Below, piece after piece: positions 1,574-11,213 of a stretch of 64,000 nucleotides of DNA (the first letter of the stretch is position 1; the number at the start of each line of letters is the position of its first letter). This stretch comes from Fistulifera solaris (taxonomy: Eukaryota): the NCBI GenBank assembly GCA_030295235.1, contig AP026164.1:2170001-2234000 (forward strand), in the 5' to 3' direction. The notes under the pieces were generated by a model. That model was not told the DNA's origin and searched no databases. It saw nothing but the letters and a program-made list of their open reading frames with translations. The translations under genes were made by a program, and so were the position numbers.

Positions 1574-2179
1574 ATGTTTTGTACTCGCACAGCCGGATGA
1601 AAAGGGAATCAAATGAACGTAAACTTTAGTAAGACAATTTCAAAACAAGTATTTTTTCAATATATAATCAGCACTTACCGATTGGCCAAACTTTAGCGCT
1701 GAGTAAAGAGGTTTTCCTTCCCTCGTTCTCTTCTTCTTTGACAACTTTCTGATGCCAAGCCTGTGCGTCTTTAACTACTTTACTTCAAAGCTGACTTCAA
1801 TACACTCCTTTTCGTATATTCCATTCGCAGAGTTGCTCAAGGGAGGCGTTCATCGCTCATTCTATCATCCAAATGAATCATACAACAAACATTTTGCTTG
1901 CCGTGATGACGGAAGACTGAGTCATGATTCGAGACTGAGACCCGGCACAATTAAACTAGAAGAACCGCGAATCTTAGCTTGTTTGCAACGAAACAAGAGG
2001 AAGGGAAACAATACTTAAAAAAAGATGAACAGACCATGCCTTATCGCCGAAGTCAAATCCTACTAGATTGACTATTTAGTTTATCTCGATTGTCTATAGG
2101 TTTATGACTACGTTGTCGAATTCGATAAGTCAGCTTGGTGGTTTAATTTCGATCTACGGCTTGGCTCACAAGTCGCAAA

Positions 2180-4032
2180 TTACTTTCCTTCCATCATCAT
2201 TTTAAGGTCACTTGAGGGATCTCCAACTGGCATGATGTTATAATTTTGCTGTAAAACACTCAAGATTCCAGGACTGATGTACGCTGGCAGCGAAGGACCG
2301 AGGCGAATATTTTTGACTCCCAAATGTAATAAAGTGAGCAGCACGGCAGCTGCCTTTTGCTCCAAATGAGAAATCGCCAAGGAGAGAGGCAATTCGTTGA
2401 CCGATTCCAGTTTCATCGCTTTGGCTAGTTCTAGTGCTACCACCACTGCCGAATAAGAGTCGTTGCACTGTCCCATATCGAGAACGCGAGGAATGGTGGC
2501 GCCGTTTGGAAGTGTGATCTGATTTGTCACCAGGTCATCTGATTTGAACTTCTCGGATTGCAGGATGCGATTCTTAGCACAACCAAGTGTGAGAATGATG
2601 CTGTCTTCAGGACTTTCGTCGGCCAAATCTGTAAAGTACGACCGATTCCACTGGGAACCATCACAGCCACCAATGAGTAAGATGCGGGACAACTTTCCTG
2701 CAGTAGCGGCTTCGATGATCTGATCCGCTAGAGGCAAAACAGCTCGGTGATTGAAGCCAATGGTGCGGAAAGTGGCTGGCTCTGCAGTTTGCTCAAAACC
2801 TTTGCACTGCTTCGCTTGCTCGATAACAGCCGAAAAGTCGCGGTTCTTCACATGCTTAATGCCGCTTAGGCCGGTAGCATTGATGGTGTACAGTCGATCT
2901 TCGTAGATTTTGCGCGGCTTCAAAACACAGTTGGTAGTAACAACGACCGGGCCCGGGAAGCAACTGAACTCGAAATTTTGATTTTGCCACGCTGTACCAT
3001 ATGATCCAGCCAGATGCGGGAAGGCATGAAGCTTCGGGTACGAATGGGCAGGTAACATTTCGCCGTGCGTGTAAACTTGAATACCGGTACCTTCGGTTTG
3101 CTTCAACAGATGGTACAGATCCACCATGTCGTGTCCGGATACGAGGATGCATTTTCCCTTGACAGCCGAAGTTCGAACGGGTGTCGGACAAGGCGCTCCT
3201 AACAATTCAGCATGCGCCGCATCCAGGGCAGCGAGGACCGACGTATTCACTTCACCAATCTTCAATGCAGCTTGCAGCAATCCATTGACATCCGCTGTAT
3301 CATCCGCTAGCTTGGCATAAATTTCATGAATAGCGATCATGACGCTCTCATCGACACTCGATCCATCAATCTCTTGACGCAACTGATGAACGTGCTCGGC
3401 GTAGGCACACAGTCCCTTCATACCGTACGTGGCGAGCTCATGCAACGAGAAAGCATCTTCATGATTCATCAGTTTGGCTCGTTCGGGAACTGAGACTAGC
3501 AGAGCCGCTTCTTGAATTTGCGATTCGGTCTTGTTGAGCCAGTCCAAGTGTGCCACAGGATGGCTCGGAGTCGCCACCCTGCCGCCGCAAATTCTTTCTT
3601 GAGGGCTTCACCTTGCTGAATGTATTCGAGAATGCGATTCTCATCAAAGTTCACGTTGGTGAGTGTACTGAACGTCGCTTCGAGCGTCCAAGTGTTGGCC
3701 TTGGCGAGGACATTCGCCGCAGTCCCACTGGCTCGGGCGGCAGTGCACCACAATGCGACAGATTTCAACACATGAATTAAGGCATCCTGTGCGGCCGAAG
3801 TCTCGGGTGTCTTACCGCAAACTCCAACGGTCGTGCAGGCGTGATGATCCGCCGTTTGTTCACATTGACGACAGAACATGGCGGATTCCGTCGACTGCCA
3901 GCGCGCTGTCATGTGAGAGGATTTAGCAGTTCTCGTAAAACCATGAGGTAAAGCTTGTGTAGCGACCAGACTCTTAGCGAGCGTCGATCGAAGCTGCGAC
4001 GAAGCGGCAACGCGGCGTAGAGTACTCAACAT
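2180..4032 (-). CDS. hcp: Hybrid-cluster protein (Hcp/prismane; hydroxylamine/NO reductase family) with mitochondrial-type presequence; one frameshift at a G run (~3577-3579)
   Basis: N-terminal MFCRQCEQT..CTTVGVCGK (CX2CX8CX5C). Hybrid-cluster motifs SGHD, THGEM, TTNC, GGCDG, LGCAK, GQCND and HLEQKA are present. Adding one G joins the 3496..4032 and 2180..3577 ORFs. Confidence 0.96.
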
Positions 4033-4678
4033 GGCGATCGAAAGAAAAGAAAGTTACTTGTTTTGTATCCGTCAAGCAAAACAGATTTATGACGATCGGA
4101 AAAGATTCTGCATCCTGCTGAAACGAAAGGTATTTCAGAGTTTGGATTCGGATTTCAGGCATTCATCACAATCTTACCCTTTCAATCCGCCGAGCCGAGA
4201 AAAAATGCGAACCTGCAAAGAACGCTTCACTCGGCCGTACTATTTCTGACTGTAACAATACTTCGAATTGCGGGGACTTTTGTAAACTACACAAAATCAA
4301 TGAATCCTGAAAAATTTCCCCGTTAGATTCGAAGTCACGCCAGTTCTTCCGGGGAACGAAAAGTACTGTTTCTATGGTAGTAGAAAGGTATGAGGTCACA
4401 GACATTGTTCCTCGGTCACAATATTGAGTATCAACAGCCGCCGAAAATCCGAACTCGAATCTTCAAGAGATTACAAAGGATGGATCTGTTATTCGTAACG
4501 TTCCTTCCAACGCCTTATTTCCAAGACTTTCTTGGATAGAAAGTGAAGGTCGGACTTGACACCAAATAATGTGAGTTCGGGTTCGACAATTGTCGGGGCA
4601 TTGGTAGACACCAACCGAGTAAAGATCGGATTCCGACACCACAAATGATTCATGCCCACAAATTTGGAATATCCTCGA

Positions 4679-6532
4679 ATGATGAATCGTTTCTTGTTGC
4701 GCTCCACAAGATCGTCACTTCCCATGACGGTGTTGCGGCATCTACGCTGGTTGTCGACACAACCGATCAAAGACTCTTTTCAAAAGGTCTCCATTTTGTA
4801 CGGAAGTCAAACAGGGACAGCCCAACTCTTTGCCATGCAACTGCAACAGGCACTGCAAGGCGCCGGAAAGGAATGCACGATGAAAGCTATGGCCGAAGTT
4901 CCACCATCCTCTTTAACGGATGATTGCCTGCACTTGTTTCTGATCAGTACTACGGGGGTCGGTGAGTTTCCTTCTAACGCCAAATCGTTTTACGAAGGCT
5001 TGTCATCATCGAAGAACGAAGCGCCGGCGATCCCCTACGCCATTTTCGCCCTTGGCAATTCGCAGGCCCATCCCAATCACTTTTGTGCCGCAGGAAAAGC
5101 ACTCCAACAAGCGTTTCAGGCCAAATTTCCGAGTGCCGTTCAGGTTTTACCGGTGCGATTGGGAGATGACGCTGTATGTATTGACGAAGAATTCGACCAG
5201 TGGCAAGAGAAAATCCTTCACACAATTGCTAAAGGAACGGAAAACACGGACGGTGAGACACCCAAGTGCAAAACATCGACGCTAGCGACGGAGACGCAAG
5301 CGCCCACGACTCGTATCCCGACGAATTACCCGGAATTGCACTTGTTAGCAGCTCAACAGAGCCGTGACGACGCGCCAGACTTGCTGGACATTTTCCCCCA
5401 TTTTTACAAGGAGAACTGTCGTCAACGAATGGAAATAACATACAATAGGAACATGCATCCCCACGCCGTCGTGGATACGGGCTTGCATGAAATGCATTTG
5501 TCGTTACCGTCGGGTTTGTCCTATGAAACAGGGGATCACATCATGATATACCCCCGAAATCCGGACCTTCTAGTTCAAGCCTACCTCAGTCATGTCTTGG
5601 AAGGTGTTGATCCCAGCCAAGTCGTGAACGAAGCAAGTCAAGCTGGACATTACCCGCATCCTTCTGGATTATCGGTCTACCAAACACTTAGTCACTGCGT
5701 CGATCTGACGGCGCCTCCATCACCATCCTTTGCGCGCTGGCTGACCTCGTCCAAGTCGTTGGAGTACAGGCAGCAAATATCCCAGCCGCGGCGGACAGTG
5801 CTGGACTTGGTCATGGAAAATCCTCAGGCCGACAAAGTGTCGCTGGCGGATTTGCTGTATCAGCTTCCGCCCCTCCAGCCTCGCTACTATTCCATTGCTT
5901 CGGCTGCCTCCGCACACCCGAATGAATTATATTTGACATATAGACCCGTGCACTACATATCGTCACGGGGTAGTCTACGTAATGGTCTTTGCACGACGTT
6001 CATGCAAAATTGCAAACCATCTCAAACAATCGTCGCTGGATTGGTGTCGAATCCTGCTTTCCGGCTCCCATTAGATCCCCAGGTTCCAATCATCTTGATA
6101 GGAGGAGGATGTGGCGTGGCTCCAATACGGGGTTTTCTGGAAGAACTGGTCCATCAAGGCACGAATCGTCCCAAGAACGTTTCACTTTTCTTGGGCTTTC
6201 GCGATCCTGCAGATCAAGTATATCATGAGTTGGTGGAAGAGAGCCAAGGATTCCTCCAAGAATGCCACATTGGATATGCTAGTGATGGTTCTCTCGTGAC
6301 CAAGGCTTTGTCGCGAAAAGCTGAATTCCTTCATCAACAATTAGTCACTCAGGGGGCTCATGTCTATATCTGTGGAGGTGCGGCATCCTTTGGTGCTGCC
6401 ATCCGGAAAACAGTGACAGATTTACTCTGGCAAGGCAATTGCTCGGGAACGATACCCGATGCTGAGGTTGCTACAAGTTTTCTACAGCACATGTCGTCGG
6501 AAGGACGATGGCATGAGGATTTGTCAGATTGA
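4679..6532 (+). CDS. Stand-alone diflavin (FMN/FAD/NAD(P)H) oxidoreductase of the CPR/NOS-reductase/CysJ superfamily with mitochondrial-type presequence
   Basis: Flavodoxin motifs ILYGSQTGTA, STTGVGEFP and FALGNS. FAD motifs PRYYSIAS and GLCTTF. Nucleotide-binding motifs GGGCGVAPIRGF, LFLGFR and VYICGG. Probable start is MMNRFLLRS at 4679; an in-frame ATG also exists at 4652. Confidence 0.93.
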   Translation: MMNRFLLRSTRSSLPMTVLRHLRWLSTQPIKDSFQKVSILYGSQTGTAQLFAMQLQQALQGAGKECTMKAMAEVPPSSLTDDCLHLFLISTTGVGEFPSNAKSFYEGLSSSKNEAPAIPYAIFALGNSQAHPNHFCAAGKALQQAFQAKFPSAVQVLPVRLGDDAVCIDEEFDQWQEKILHTIAKGTENTDGETPKCKTSTLATETQAPTTRIPTNYPELHLLAAQQSRDDAPDLLDIFPHFYKENCRQRMEITYNRNMHPHAVVDTGLHEMHLSLPSGLSYETGDHIMIYPRNPDLLVQAYLSHVLEGVDPSQVVNEASQAGHYPHPSGLSVYQTLSHCVDLTAPPSPSFARWLTSSKSLEYRQQISQPRRTVLDLVMENPQADKVSLADLLYQLPPLQPRYYSIASAASAHPNELYLTYRPVHYISSRGSLRNGLCTTFMQNCKPSQTIVAGLVSNPAFRLPLDPQVPIILIGGGCGVAPIRGFLEELVHQGTNRPKNVSLFLGFRDPADQVYHELVEESQGFLQECHIGYASDGSLVTKALSRKAEFLHQQLVTQGAHVYICGGAASFGAAIRKTVTDLLWQGNCSGTIPDAEVATSFLQHMSSEGRWHEDLSD

Positions 6533-6639
6533 ACATGAAGCCTCAAATGGAAAGAGTATCATACAGAAAAGGTTTAATTCATAAACAAACCAACGCTATC
6601 GATTACGCTACAGGTTTTAGATGATCATCGTTGGAAGAT

Positions 6640-7436
6640 TTAGTATTCAGAGGACGTCATAGGGGCATCCGACGAAGTAAATTCAGGATCTTTCTTGGGT
6701 CCGTCCTTAATCAATCCTAACGGCTTCAAGAGAGTATTGACAATAGGCTTCAGCATTTCTTGAGTCTTGTCCGAAGCTCCAATAAGTAGACTGAGAACCG
6801 CATTGATCGTAGGATTCAAGATACCGTCGTCAACCTGGTGCAACTTAACGGAAACACCCTTATCAACGTCATCAAGGTTTTTGCCAACTACGGACACAAC
6901 AGTACCGGCTACACCTTCAGCGAGACCGAGAAAGGGACCTACGAAGAAAACTCCTTTTCCCCAACCCCAAACGCCCTTGGCGGAGTCGTACACGTGGGTG
7001 GCAACATCAATGTTCTTTTCAGAAGTCATTTCGGAGTCTTCAAAATCTTCTGTTTGAGCGGTAATATCTACAAAGTCCTGTGAAAGAGGGTCACGAGCAA
7101 AGGGTGAATCTTTTGATAAAGAATAATCGTCAGCGGGAAAAAGTGTCGACCACGGCCCGTTTCCATTCCAGAGTGCATTGATTGTGCAACCGAGGCAAAG
7201 TCTTCCGTCGCAACGGACAAGCTGCAGGACGACTTGTGCTTTTCATGTATCTGATGCGCTAGTGCCAATGCTGATATTGTGTCCGTCGGAAGGCCGGGAC
7301 CGAAGAATAAGGACTCAGCAGGGCCTTTAGGCGATACAGGTTGAAGCATATCATCGTCATCCAAGCTATAATCCCCCGAGGATGGAGTCATCATAGAAAT
7401 GCCTGGAATGTCGAGCTCTGATCCGATAAGACTCAT
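6640..7436 (-). CDS. Hypothetical protein, probably two exons (7436-~7150 and ~7070-6640); C-terminal amphipathic-helix-rich domain
   Basis: The 129-aa ORF reads open upstream (DFVDITAQTEDFEDSE-MTSEK) to a pyrimidine-rich acceptor region. A 122-aa ORF lies directly upstream on the same strand. Exact splice sites are uncertain. Confidence 0.55.
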
Positions 7437-8933
7437 TCTTTCCTTTGATTAACGTTCGAAAGATCACAAACAACAACTTCAAGTGTTCTCAAAATGAAAC
7501 AACTGGAATGTCAAGCAAAGGAGCAACGCGTGAGAGTTTAGTCTTTTCGAAAGAATTGCACGTGAAGCGGCAAGATACAAACGACGGTGCAGTTCGCTGT
7601 CCCTAAAGTATAGGCCAATGTGTAGACAGCACCAATGCTTCGCAACCGCGGGCGTGCGCGGCCTCACAGGGGGTCTGAGTGAAACAGTAGAGTGATGCGC
7701 CGTATAGCGGATCGACGTCGATTTTTCGCACGGATACGCGAACGCTTTCACAAAACTATGTCGTGTAAAGTAGTTAAATACTTCGCACGAAAGAATATCG
7801 AGCCGCCGCCACCACCATGGCGATCGTGAACGGCGTCTTGTTGCTGGGCATGAGCGTCTTGGGCTAGAATATTGACTCTAACATGATGAAGATGAGGGCG
7901 TCTCGATGACTAGTTCGGATAGACGAGCGGTCGGAAGGGAGCTTACATGTCCTTTGGAAGTATGGTGCTCTTTACATTTCAATTCATCCCTTTTCTTGCA
8001 ACCAACAGATTCTCTCGCAACATTGCTCTTCGGAACGTACCTCTGCAATCAACAACAAACATGTTGCATACCTTGTATTGAATTGTAGTTTGATCTTTGT
8101 TGTCGAATGGATTCCAGCTTCGCGGGGAACGGAACATTACGATTTGTGGAACAGGAAAGGAGTGATGAAAATGGCGGCTCGGATTTCCGCAGATGTGAGG
8201 AAGTCGATCGACATCATTATTATTATTTGAAATTCGACCCTACACCCTACACCCATGAAATAAAGTCGTCGACCATTTACGTTTTACAAGTAGCTTTCAA
8301 TGCCGTGTAGTACGTCACAAAGAAAACCTGTCTAGGGTTTAAAGTACCCGATCGGTTCTGAAATTTATCTAGGGCGGTGGAAAATGGGAACTGCATAACA
8401 TCACCTCTAGAAATCGAAATTGCCGTTTATGTTTTATGCCATGGCCGAAAGCGAGGCAGCCAGCTACATAAGTGACCATTGTCGCCTTTCACCTTGTATT
8501 CCGCTATTGCTATGTATACCATTGTCACCCACAACGGCCAAGGGCATCAACAAAAATTTCTAAATAGAAAGGATGGGGCGGCTCTTAGTTCGTGACAAGT
8601 CTCAGGTAAAATCATTGTGTGTGGCTATCAAATATCAAACTAAAGTTGGCGATTAGCTCTTCTAATATTTAAATTGCTTTTTTCGCGACTAAAGCACAGG
8701 AGAAAAAACGGCAGATCCTAAAAAATGCGCACTTGAAACTACAAATCGTTCAGTTAACACGAAAAATACCTTCTCGCCCCTCCATAGTCAATGCATCGGG
8801 GTCGTACAAAGCAAAAACCGGAAGCTATATTCAAAAATGATTCATACCAGGTACGACCATGCATACTTGCATGACCACGCGAAATCAACTGACCGTTTCG
8901 CAAGAACAAGATCAATCGTTACTTAGCTCATTA

Positions 8934-9029
8934 TTTCATGTCCCTTTCTAATTATTCCTAATTTCCTAAAAGTCAGAATGTAATTTTGACATTCGACTGA
9001 AATTTCCATTTTTCGTTTCATGTCCCTTT
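8934..9029. repeat. 68-bp segment flanked by the 14-bp direct repeat TTTCATGTCCCTTT; contains a dispersed 29-bp motif and a hairpin
   Basis: Direct repeat at 8934-8947 and 9016-9029. The internal sequence TTATTCCTAATTTCCTAAAAGTCAGAATG nearly recurs at 55654-55681. Confidence 0.7.
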
Positions 9030-9485
9030 GTTTAGTTGATGGTTTTGTTGATCGGCTTCAACAAAGAATGTGTATACTACTCGAAACGTGTTGGTCCCTG
9101 TTGAGCTTCACATCTATTACTTTTTATCCAAGTGTTGCTCTAAATCTTGGAAACTAACAGTACTCTGAATCACGAGTTCTCAGGGCCACTATTACATCTG
9201 CGAGTACCGAAAGCGAATTTTGAGTACCGCAACATTTATTTAGCTTAAAGCTGCGCGGAGACGTTCTACGGCAAACCTACAGTTTCTATTAGATTCATTT
9301 TCGACTGTAGGCATTTTGGTACCAAGAATGTTTCGGCCCCTAAAATCCCTAATCACACGATCCCAATTTCCGTGCACCTCATCCCTCATCCTTTTGACTT
9401 CAAACGTTCTTTCCTCCTCTCGGCATCTTGCTATTTGAATGTAATTAAGATCAACCAGTTTGCTCCAAGTCGACGCTTCTATACA

Positions 9486-11213
9486 ATGAAATCGCTATCT
9501 CGATGGATTCTCGCATTATTGTGCGCATCTGCCGCCGCACTCTTGAAGGAAGATGCCAGAATGGTACGACGATCGGATCTTTCTGTGTCTCATCATTGTA
9601 GTATGCGACGATCGCTCACTCAACGCACCTGGACCAGATGGCGTATGTCGGAAACTGGCAAACCTGTCCCTCGGAGGCTCAGCTGGAACAATACACACAC
9701 ATTGCGATCGGATTTGCGGTCACGTATACGTACGCGGAACCGAAGAATCTGTGCAGTGAAACGTGTGTCATCGAAGCACCGTTGATTTGCGAAAATCAGG
9801 CGGATCCTACCATTATCAGTGACTGGAAGTCTCGCGGCATTAAAGTATTACTGAGTTTTGGAGGTGCGGGTATGGGTGGAAGTTGGGAAGGAGATGTCAA
9901 CGATTGCTGGAAATACTGCTTTGGCCGTGAAGATTACGTGATTGGTCGTTTGGTCGAATTAGTAAACACGATGAACCTCGACGGCATCGACTTGGATTAT
10001 GAATACTTCCTAGAAGATGAACCCGAACGAGGATTTACGGAAGGGGCTGCGGCAATCAACTTTCTTGAGACTGTGACCGTTGGATTACGACAACAAATGC
10101 CCGATAAGCTTCTTACCCATGCACCGATGGATGTCGACGCGGTGGCAGGAACGGCCTATTATGAAATGTTGAGGCGAGTCGCCTACACAATGGATTTTAT
10201 CATGCCACAATACTATAACGGTGTCACTCGACCCAATATGGACGGTTTCATGAATCAAGTACAGGGTGAGATGTCACCCTTGGATCATTACAACGGCCTT
10301 TTGCCACTCTTTGAATACGATCCCACTCGAATTGTATTTGGATTTTGCATCAATGATTGCGGAGGTGAGTATAATATATATTTATGAGAAGCAATGCTTT
10401 GCGAGTTGAAGTATTCGAAAAGTTCTCATCATTGCTTCGACAGGTACCGGCTCGAACTCGGACGCAACCCAGGCCTCAACTGTCATCACTGAACTGGAAA
10501 GTCAATTTCCCTGTCACGGCGGAGCTTTCTTCTGGGTAAATTTAGACGATACCAATGGAGATTGGTCGAGAGGTGTCAATCAAGCTCTTTCTTTCAATCG
10601 TGGATGTACCAACATTGGTGGCGTAATTCCTACTCCCCCTCCTCTTGCCGTCCCCGTCTCCGTTCCGGTCGCTCTTCCGGCTCCCACGTCTCCAATCGGG
10701 GTTTCCCCCGTTTCAGTGCCTGTCGCTTTTCCGACCCCTTCGTCTCCGATAGGCATTTCGCCTGTTACAGTTCCGATTTCTATCCCTACACCATCCCTCC
10801 CATCCGCTCCTTTCACTTTTCCGAGCCCTTCGTCCCCGACAGGTCTTTCCCCTGTGACAGCTCCCATTTCTATCCCTACGCCAGTCCTTCCCTCTGTTCC
10901 TGTAGCGAGTCCTGTATCAAGCCCTCTATCACCCGTGGCCAGTTTCCCTGTTGGGACTCCAACTCCTACATTCCCAGTGATAAATTCCGCTCCACCCGCA
11001 TTGACTCCGGCTACAACGACTGTGGAACCCACTGAGCTTTCAACACCCACGGCGAGCCCCGTTGGCATGATCAGCATCGGCAACGGCTCGGTGACCGATC
11101 CCAATGAACCCAATTTTTACGACCCCAACAACTCTCTATCATTAGCGTTTCCGTCCTATCAAGCAAACCTGCTTCTAATTCCGACTCTGGTTACATGGGC
11201 TTTGATGATGTAA
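9486..11213 (+). CDS. GH18 chitinase-like secreted protein with P/S/T-rich stalk and hydrophobic C-terminus (putative GPI anchor); introns ~9563-9637 and 10365-10443
   Basis: Signal peptide MKSLSRWILALLCASAAA, LLSFGG, intact DGIDLDYE (DxxDxDxE), MPQYYN and GAFFW. Splicing restores the frame into the 10716..11213 ORF. Confidence 0.9.

Follow-up and report, generated by a model that had tools for sequence, protein, structure and literature searches.

We analysed a 64,000-nucleotide stretch of the genome of the diatom Fistulifera solaris (contig AP026164.1, positions 2,170,001 to 2,234,000 of the forward strand; hereafter the window). The locus examined here lies in diatom nuclear DNA and consists of two intact genes arranged head-to-head, one on the minus strand coding for a hybrid cluster protein (Hcp) and one on the plus strand coding for a diflavin reductase with flavin mononucleotide (FMN) and flavin adenine dinucleotide (FAD) domains. 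A preliminary description of this DNA had pointed to an Hcp gene possessing every cluster-ligand motif and to a stand-alone FMN/FAD reductase diverging from it across about 650 bp. Both observations hold: the former is confirmed by the Prismane match, the cubane motif and all seven hybrid-cluster ligand motifs, and the latter by three Pfam domains and a conserved start. The features of the locus are collected in Table 1.

The Pfam Prismane profile (PF03063) was matched by two minus-strand open reading frames (ORFs), of which the first (3496-4032) covers profile positions 1-88 (E 9e-20) and the second (2180-3469) positions 111-513 (E 1e-113). A close relative of the window protein (P0206, 95% identical) recovered Hcp structures as its PDB matches, with E values from 6e-134 to 1e-120. 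The seven ligand motifs, which we take from the Desulfovibrio structures to supply a histidine, a glutamate, four cysteines and a further glutamate to the hybrid cluster, are all present in the window protein and do not vary across 50 aligned diatom Hcps, and neither do the four cysteines of the [4Fe-4S] cubane motif. Class I Hcps are typified by a cubane motif of the form C-x2-C-x8-C-x5-C at the N-terminus, and the window Hcp shows precisely this spacing without the class II insertion; aligning the diatom Hcp to the class II protein of Escherichia coli requires gaps at the cubane motif. In a tree of Hcps the window protein falls inside a diatom clade with a Shimodaira-Hasegawa-like approximate likelihood ratio test (SH-aLRT) support of 100.

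The two Hcp ORFs lie in different frames. The tblastn segments obtained with two homologues (P0206, 619 aa, and P0207, 623 aa) join at 3577 with zero residues lost, the segment ending in KKEFAAAG being followed directly by that starting with VATPSHP, and a manual reading of the second frame upstream gave the same join. We compared positions 2000-6700 of the window with contigs of four runs from one study, namely an even-coverage, DNA-like run (X1) and three RNA-like runs (X2-X4), and noted one additional C after 3576 in the contigs of all four. Homeolog-like contigs of X1 and X3 instead show an additional A after 3577 along with two substitutions close by. Given that the missing base is present in the contigs of every run, and that homologues read through this point, the break is an assembly error rather than an intron or the mark of a pseudogene, and the gene is intact. 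An intron was also rejected on its own account, as there is no GT-AG interval with the correct phase and homologues are collinear across 3577. The idea that the frameshift has turned this hcp copy into an inactive pseudogene draws on the fact that the window sequence itself interrupts the frame, but given the additional base in every run, including the DNA-like one, and the absence of any further stop or break, we attach practically no credence to it. Contigs covering the hcp/reductase locus were found in all three RNA-like runs; the region 4198-4668 is covered by contigs of X1 and not by those of X2-X4, a pattern that is not usable as evidence for transcript ends. Where the contigs of X2 and X4 stop, at 2075, they carry a loose T run, suggestive of a poly(A) site about 105 nt beyond the Hcp stop codon.

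On the plus strand, the ORF at 4652-6532 carries, in this order, the Flavodoxin_1, FAD_binding_1 and NAD_binding_1 domains; these were the sole families that Pfam returned, and no [2Fe-2S] ferredoxin domain was detected in this ORF. The start codon is probably the ATG at 4679, given that the homeolog (P0001) and a relative (P0002) begin with MMNRF or MNRF, and it is this placement that sets the bounds of the intergenic spacer at 4033-4678, in agreement with the preliminary description. The protein corresponds to a public record of 626 aa (P0326), which falls in one 90%-identity cluster with FisN_20Hh172 of Fistulifera solaris.

Table 1. Features of the divergent hcp/reductase locus, in window coordinates
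Feature	Position	Strand	Basis and remarks
Probable Hcp 3' untranslated region, up to poly(A) site	2075-2179	-	X2 and X4 contigs stop at 2075
Hcp (hybrid cluster protein) coding region	2180-4032	-	Single exon, about 607 aa counting the base absent at 3577; Pfam Prismane, collinear tblastn
Span with seven hybrid-cluster ligand motifs	2354-3139	-	Sequence read
HLEQK	2354-2368	-	Hybrid-cluster ligand motif of Hcp
GQCND	2459-2473	-	Hybrid-cluster ligand motif of Hcp
LGCAK	2573-2587	-	Hybrid-cluster ligand motif of Hcp
GGCDG	2657-2671	-	Hybrid-cluster ligand motif of Hcp
TNC	2921-2935	-	Hybrid-cluster ligand motif of Hcp
HGEM	3053-3067	-	Hybrid-cluster ligand motif of Hcp
SGHD	3125-3139	-	Hybrid-cluster ligand motif of Hcp
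Frame break, homopolymer run one base short (CCC on + strand at 3577-3579)	3575-3579	-	tblastn and run contigs
[4Fe-4S] cubane motif C54-x2-C57-x8-C66-x5-C72	3817-3873	-	Sequence read
Hcp N-terminal extension, residues 1-48, presequence-like, ends RWQST	3889-4032	-	0 D/E, 7 R/K
Divergent intergenic region, presumed bidirectional promoter	4033-4678	.	646 bp between hcp and reductase starts
Diflavin reductase coding region	4679-6532	+	ORF open from 4652; conserved start 4679
Reductase presequence-like N-terminus (MMNRF...RWLST)	4679-4759	+	ORF residues 10-36, 0 D/E, 5 R/K
FMN (flavodoxin) domain	4793-5203	+	Pfam, motif alignment; SQTGTA kept, STTGVGE and AHPNHF loops instead of CPR Tyr loops
FAD-binding/connecting domain with RYYSIAS	5429-6001	+	Pfam, motif alignment
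NAD(P)H domain and C-terminus	6095-6529	+	GGGCGVAP, 2'-phosphate loop YASDGS, ICGGA, end EDLSD without aromatic residue

Among solved structures the reductase is closest to the NADPH-cytochrome P450 reductases (CPRs; best E 7e-51); NOS, BM3 and CysJ come next, and MTRR and NDOR1 are much more distant matches. Look-ups in the ESM Atlas returned generic diflavin families only. An exhaustive phmmer search over 1.84 billion representative sequences resolved its relatives further, in that a gap in the scores separates group members, at 227 bits or more, from generic CPR-like proteins, such as those of Lapot, Cyanophora, Clydonella and Cymbomonas, at 206 bits or less. Trees constructed with FastTree (97 rows) and with IQ-TREE in quick mode (41 rows) recovered a diatom reductase clade that includes the window protein, with a support of 100 in the former and an SH-aLRT of 100 in the latter, and a few sister proteins join this clade with a support of 99. 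The canonical CPRs form a clade of their own (support 94 in the larger and 98 in the smaller tree), as do the reductase domains of certain fusion proteins discussed below (support 100 in both). Among the 120 matches listed, each named diatom species has one reductase, which fits an orthologous group. The question of orthology with CPR, MTRR or NDOR1, raised in the preliminary description, is thus settled in favor of a separate diatom clade with signatures of its own, and this clade is derived from CPR. A separate observation from these trees is that Cylindrotheca groups with Thalassiosirales-type sequences and not with the other raphid pennates, both for the reductase (support 96) and for Hcp (support 98), and its two genes seem to have the same odd history.

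The clade shares with microsomal CPR the order of its domains and retains the SQTGTA, RYYSIAS and LGDD motifs, but departs from it in several features. It lacks the membrane anchor: with a threshold of a mean hydropathy of at least 1.6 over 19 residues, and considering only clade members with a Met start, a hydrophobic 19-mer ahead of the flavodoxin domain was seen in none of 36 clade members but in 31 of the 48 generic representatives of CPR-like proteins, and the maximum in the window protein is only 0.29. The C-terminus reads GR-x-x-EDL(S/A)D in place of the GRY-x-x-DVW of CPR, with loss of the terminal Trp, the aromatic residue that stacks on FAD. The loop aligned to S596-R597...K602...Y604 of rat CPR, which we take to be the residues contacting the 2'-phosphate, has none of these, and in the window protein it reads YASDGS-LVT. 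Further substitutions convert GPGTG to GGGCG and CGDA to CGGA, and the FMN loops are altered to S-T-T-G-V-G-E, with loss of the Tyr, and to GN-x-x-AHP-x-x-F, which is two residues longer. The preference of CPRs moves toward NADH when the terminal Trp and the contacts to the 2'-phosphate are removed; given that both are absent from this clade, NADH rather than NADPH would be a plausible donor. Most members of the clade, though not the Fistulifera proteins, carry in addition a two-cysteine insertion, S-G-C-x(3-20)-C-x-L-V-S, aligned to residues 539-553 of the window protein, at the position where CPR binds the 2'-phosphate of NADPH.

The juxtaposition of the two genes is seen in other diatoms. 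In Seminavis robusta a gene annotated as a 'P450 reductase' (Sro1024_g232680, r:24640-26971) lies head-to-head with a 'hydroxylamine reductase' (Sro1024_g232690, f:27344-29309) across a spacer of 373 bp; in Cylindrotheca closterium, Hcp (CAJ1954094) and the reductase (CAJ1954095) have consecutive accessions on one 340-kb contig; and in a metagenome-assembled genome of the Bacillariaceae the two have consecutive locus tags (SGBAC_005909 and SGBAC_005910) on one 23-kb contig. Six further reductase/Hcp pairs agree in source and in the size of their longest contig (21660, 21987, 373161, 22089, 12719 and 11347), and these contigs appear to hold both genes. Two other coincidences of size, 1954 and 2764, were rejected as linked pairs, as the contigs are too short for both genes and the sources differ. 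The homologue lists behind these pairings comprised the best 120 of 382 and the best 120 of 7995 matches. All eight Hcp-linked reductases that were placed in the trees are scattered across the diatom clade. Seminavis robusta has a second Hcp gene, Sro1750_g295230, on another contig, whose product has an N-terminal extension of only 29 residues (the two Hcps are P0281 and P0253).

A scan of metagenomes with the C-terminal Hcp ORF yielded 80 loci, of which only six (L001-L006) are diatom-like (58-65% identity). The window reductase matched two of the 80 by tblastn, L003 and L005, which are near-identical and are counted as one organism; no other diatom-like locus extends more than 1.3 kb upstream of hcp. 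In the fetched flanks of the 74 bacterial Hcp loci, the same tblastn search found no diflavin match. At L005 the genes are again head-to-head, about 554 bp apart, with the minus-strand reductase starting at an ATG at 6086 and the plus-strand Hcp at one at 6641. With regard to the promoter, a comparison of the window and L005 spacers recovered no common motif beyond a single shared 10-mer, which is near chance expectation. The L005 spacer itself harbors, within 6171-6306, two exact copies of a word of about 16 nt (AGAACGTGGTCGTGTC, at ~6209 and ~6288), preceded by a partial one at ~6171; this word may be a cis element, and it is absent from the window spacer.

A third neighboring gene, coding for a protein of about 250 aa without a Pfam family, is present at both loci (6640-7436 on the minus strand of the window; 8872-9627 on the minus strand of L005; E 8e-26). 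It stands tail-to-tail with the reductase in the window and tail-to-tail with Hcp in L005, and since it thus lies on opposite sides, the divergent pair has evidently been inverted as a unit. The pair therefore stays head-to-head through a rearrangement, alongside some plain microsynteny. This bears on the possibility of neutral microsynteny, in which the reductase would be an ordinary CPR paralogue that happens to stand beside hcp. The shared third neighbor is what would be expected under it, and so are the CPR structures as best matches; yet the divergent pair was kept while its flank switched sides, the linked members come from the whole breadth of the reductase clade, and that clade is devoid of the CPR membrane anchor, terminal Trp and 2'-phosphate residues. 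We accordingly consider a chance neighborhood improbable. In the window the third neighbor is split over two frames (7068-7436 and 6640-7242), perhaps through a further homopolymer error, and its look-alikes by ESM Atlas features are lipid-droplet proteins (Perilipin_2 and REF/SRPP, score 0.85), a match that we treat as a lead only.

An independent line of evidence comes from proteins in which the two activities are joined. Searching with the Hcp ORF for relatives of greater length recovered 85 proteins, of which 64 combine Prismane with FAD_binding_1, mostly along with Flavodoxin_1, while one more has Flavodoxin_1 alone. These fusions, of about 1200 aa, come from fungi, an oomycete, Chromera and Cyanophora, the named sources being Basidiobolus, Gonapodya, Polychytrium, Hyaloraphidium, Podochytrium, Aphanomyces and Chromera, with one entry bearing a Cyanophora-style identifier. 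Seven of the eight examined have the order Flavodoxin-FAD-(NAD)-Prismane, and the eighth is Flavodoxin-Prismane. They thus bring together the same three reductase domains and Hcp as the diatom pair, presumably with the same logic of electron flow from NAD(P)H through FAD and FMN to Hcp, and their natural existence implies that reductases of this type can serve Hcp. Unlike the diatom proteins, which are encoded by two genes, they are single polypeptides, and their reductase domains retain an aromatic residue at the C-terminal junction (EAY). Their Hcp domains form a clade (support 99) apart from the diatom Hcps (support 100), with the branching between the two clades unsettled. An origin of the diatom pair by fission of a fusion gene was rejected, because both the reductase and the Hcp domains fall outside the fusion clades. 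Taken together, the trees indicate that there are two Hcp lineages, each tied to a different lineage of diflavin reductases, in one case by fusion and in the other as a divergent gene pair.

Both proteins of the pair start with extensions that resemble mitochondrial presequences, as the preliminary description had proposed for the window proteins, and these features proved to be conserved across the two families. In the reductase clade the extensions have a median length of 56 residues with 8 R/K and 1 D/E, and finish in RxFS(T)-like motifs, among them RRFSS, RFLST, RWLST and RLFST. Among the 120 Hcp homologues listed, 68 start with Met and have an extension of 15 or more residues ahead of the cubane motif; the 45 extensions inspected are rich in basic and poor in acidic residues, and most of them end in (F/L)S(T/S). 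A signal-peptide-like segment, as would be expected for import into the diatom plastid, was not visible in the Hcp or reductase extensions. In the PhaeoNet data (PMC7596299), the Hcp of Phaeodactylum (J12416, chr_8, module skyblue) is called 'mitochondrion' by HECTAR and 'Possessing mitochondrial presequence' by MitoFates, with the consensus 'Mitochondria'; a reductase orthologue of this species did not turn up in the portion of these data that was searched. PMC13632651 reports that the HCP of Acanthamoeba is mitochondrial by microscopy and induced under hypoxia and anoxia. Hcp and the reductase are thus both probably mitochondrial, their localisation being a prediction.

In light of these observations, we consider it likely, though by no means assured, that the two genes specify a conserved, co-regulated and probably mitochondrial redox pair. 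They would constitute a two-gene module, conserved in diatoms and expressed from a shared divergent promoter region, both products being imported into mitochondria, where the soluble, CPR-derived reductase would bind the class-I-type Hcp as its dedicated electron donor. NAD(P)H would pass hydride to FAD, from which single electrons would move via the FMN of the flavodoxin-like domain to Hcp, first to its N-terminal [4Fe-4S] cubane and thence to the hybrid [4Fe-2S-2O] cluster, where nitric oxide (NO) might be reduced to nitrous oxide (N2O) or hydroxylamine (NH2OH) to NH3. The preliminary description had envisaged the recruitment of a CPR/NOS-type diflavin reductase as a partner of Hcp, and the linkage, the distinct clade and the fusions elsewhere favor this part of the proposal. 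This type of pairing is not unique to the locus. The preliminary description knew of no earlier account of it, and in the literature searched we found none in which a diflavin reductase partners a eukaryotic Hcp, but databases already contain diflavin-Hcp fusion proteins.

The enterobacterial Hcp-Hcr system offers the closest precedent, in that hcp there has a partner gene too, coding for a dedicated pyridine-nucleotide-dependent flavoprotein that feeds the cubane. Its proposed role, reportedly set out by Wang in 2016 and van den Berg in 2000, is the reduction of NO or NH2OH. The diatom reductase would stand in the place of Hcr, with FMN replacing the [2Fe-2S] center: Hcr, an NADH oxidoreductase, combines FAD with [2Fe-2S], whereas the diatom enzyme contains FMN and FAD without an iron-sulfur domain. 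Moreover, the enterobacterial Hcp is of class II, while that of diatoms has the class I cubane spacing and no class II insertion; and the enterobacterial genes are co-transcribed, in contrast to the divergent, nuclear genes of diatoms with their presequences. Hcp-Hcr already represents this kind of system, and what is new is the type of reductase, its eukaryotic setting and the distinct reductase subfamily.

Several observations weigh against the interpretation as a dedicated redox pair. In Mayamaea pseudoterrestris, hcp and the reductase are on different contigs, so that the synteny proposed for checking by the preliminary description stands for Seminavis, L003/L005, Cylindrotheca and the Bacillariaceae genome and not for this species; and many long contigs with one of the genes found no partner among the matches listed for the other. 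The linkage could partly be plain microsynteny, since the window and L005 also share the third neighbor. As the Tyr positions that stack on FMN in CPR are replaced, the FMN chemistry may differ from that assumed above. Furthermore, the reductase domains of the fusions are only 24-25% identical to the window reductase and match it with lower scores than rat CPR; given this and their separate clade, the fusions support the principle rather than this reductase family directly.

The unlinked genes of Mayamaea would also suit a different explanation, namely that the two proteins share a promoter and a compartment without any direct redox partnership, the reductase feeding some other acceptor in the mitochondrion (for instance a haem protein, an iron-sulfur assembly factor or a quinone), and a general carrier such as mitochondrial ferredoxin reducing Hcp. 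CPR-family enzymes are promiscuous electron donors, which would accord with such a role. PMC10210160 proposes a general donor for class I Hcps, and PMC8003979 proposes ferredoxin as the donor of Chlamydomonas HCP4. Against this stand the retention of the head-to-head linkage across distant diatoms, even through a local inversion, and the many independent fusions of another diflavin lineage to Hcp (64 of the 85 longer proteins). We therefore regard separate roles for the two proteins as rather unlikely, albeit less so than a chance neighborhood, and prefer the direct partnership.

Elsewhere in the window, the plus strand at 1-1573 shows the end of an ORF that by eye is nucleotide cyclase-like (1-246), followed by a PDEase_I domain divided between the ORFs 736-1311 and 1265-1573, which overlap and differ in frame; this split could be due to an intron or to a frame error of the assembly. 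A further plus-strand ORF, at 9638-10387, contains a DGIDLDYEY motif and resembles a chitinase of glycoside hydrolase family 18 (GH18).

These results bear on the general question of how Hcps receive their electrons. According to PMC10210160, class I HCP has no known donor and its gene usually lacks syntenic partners, an absence taken there as a sign of a general donor. In the excerpts of four diatom papers (PMC2945787, PMC10328945, PMC8811913 and PMC8977783), Hcp figures only as a highly expressed nitrogen-metabolism gene of bacterial origin, present in diatoms and absent from Parmales. The conserved diatom gene pair, together with the many independent fusions, now names a concrete, testable type of donor for class I Hcp, and the reductases form a new diflavin subfamily that is soluble, bears presequences and lacks the Trp and 2'-phosphate signatures. 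Going a step further, the diatom pair and the sister proteins with an ED(L/V)(S/A)D C-terminus might be parts of a single ancient mitochondrial module of eukaryotes, in which a Trp-less, possibly NADH-using offshoot of CPR would be the missing donor of class-I-type Hcp, with fungi, oomycetes, Chromera and Cyanophora having arrived independently at a similar solution by fusing a different diflavin reductase; this extension is tentative, and we are somewhat more inclined to doubt it than to accept it. For the diatoms themselves, the pair would provide their mitochondria with a candidate NAD(P)H-driven sink for NO or hydroxylamine, which may be relevant to the use of nitrate in the dark or under anoxia.

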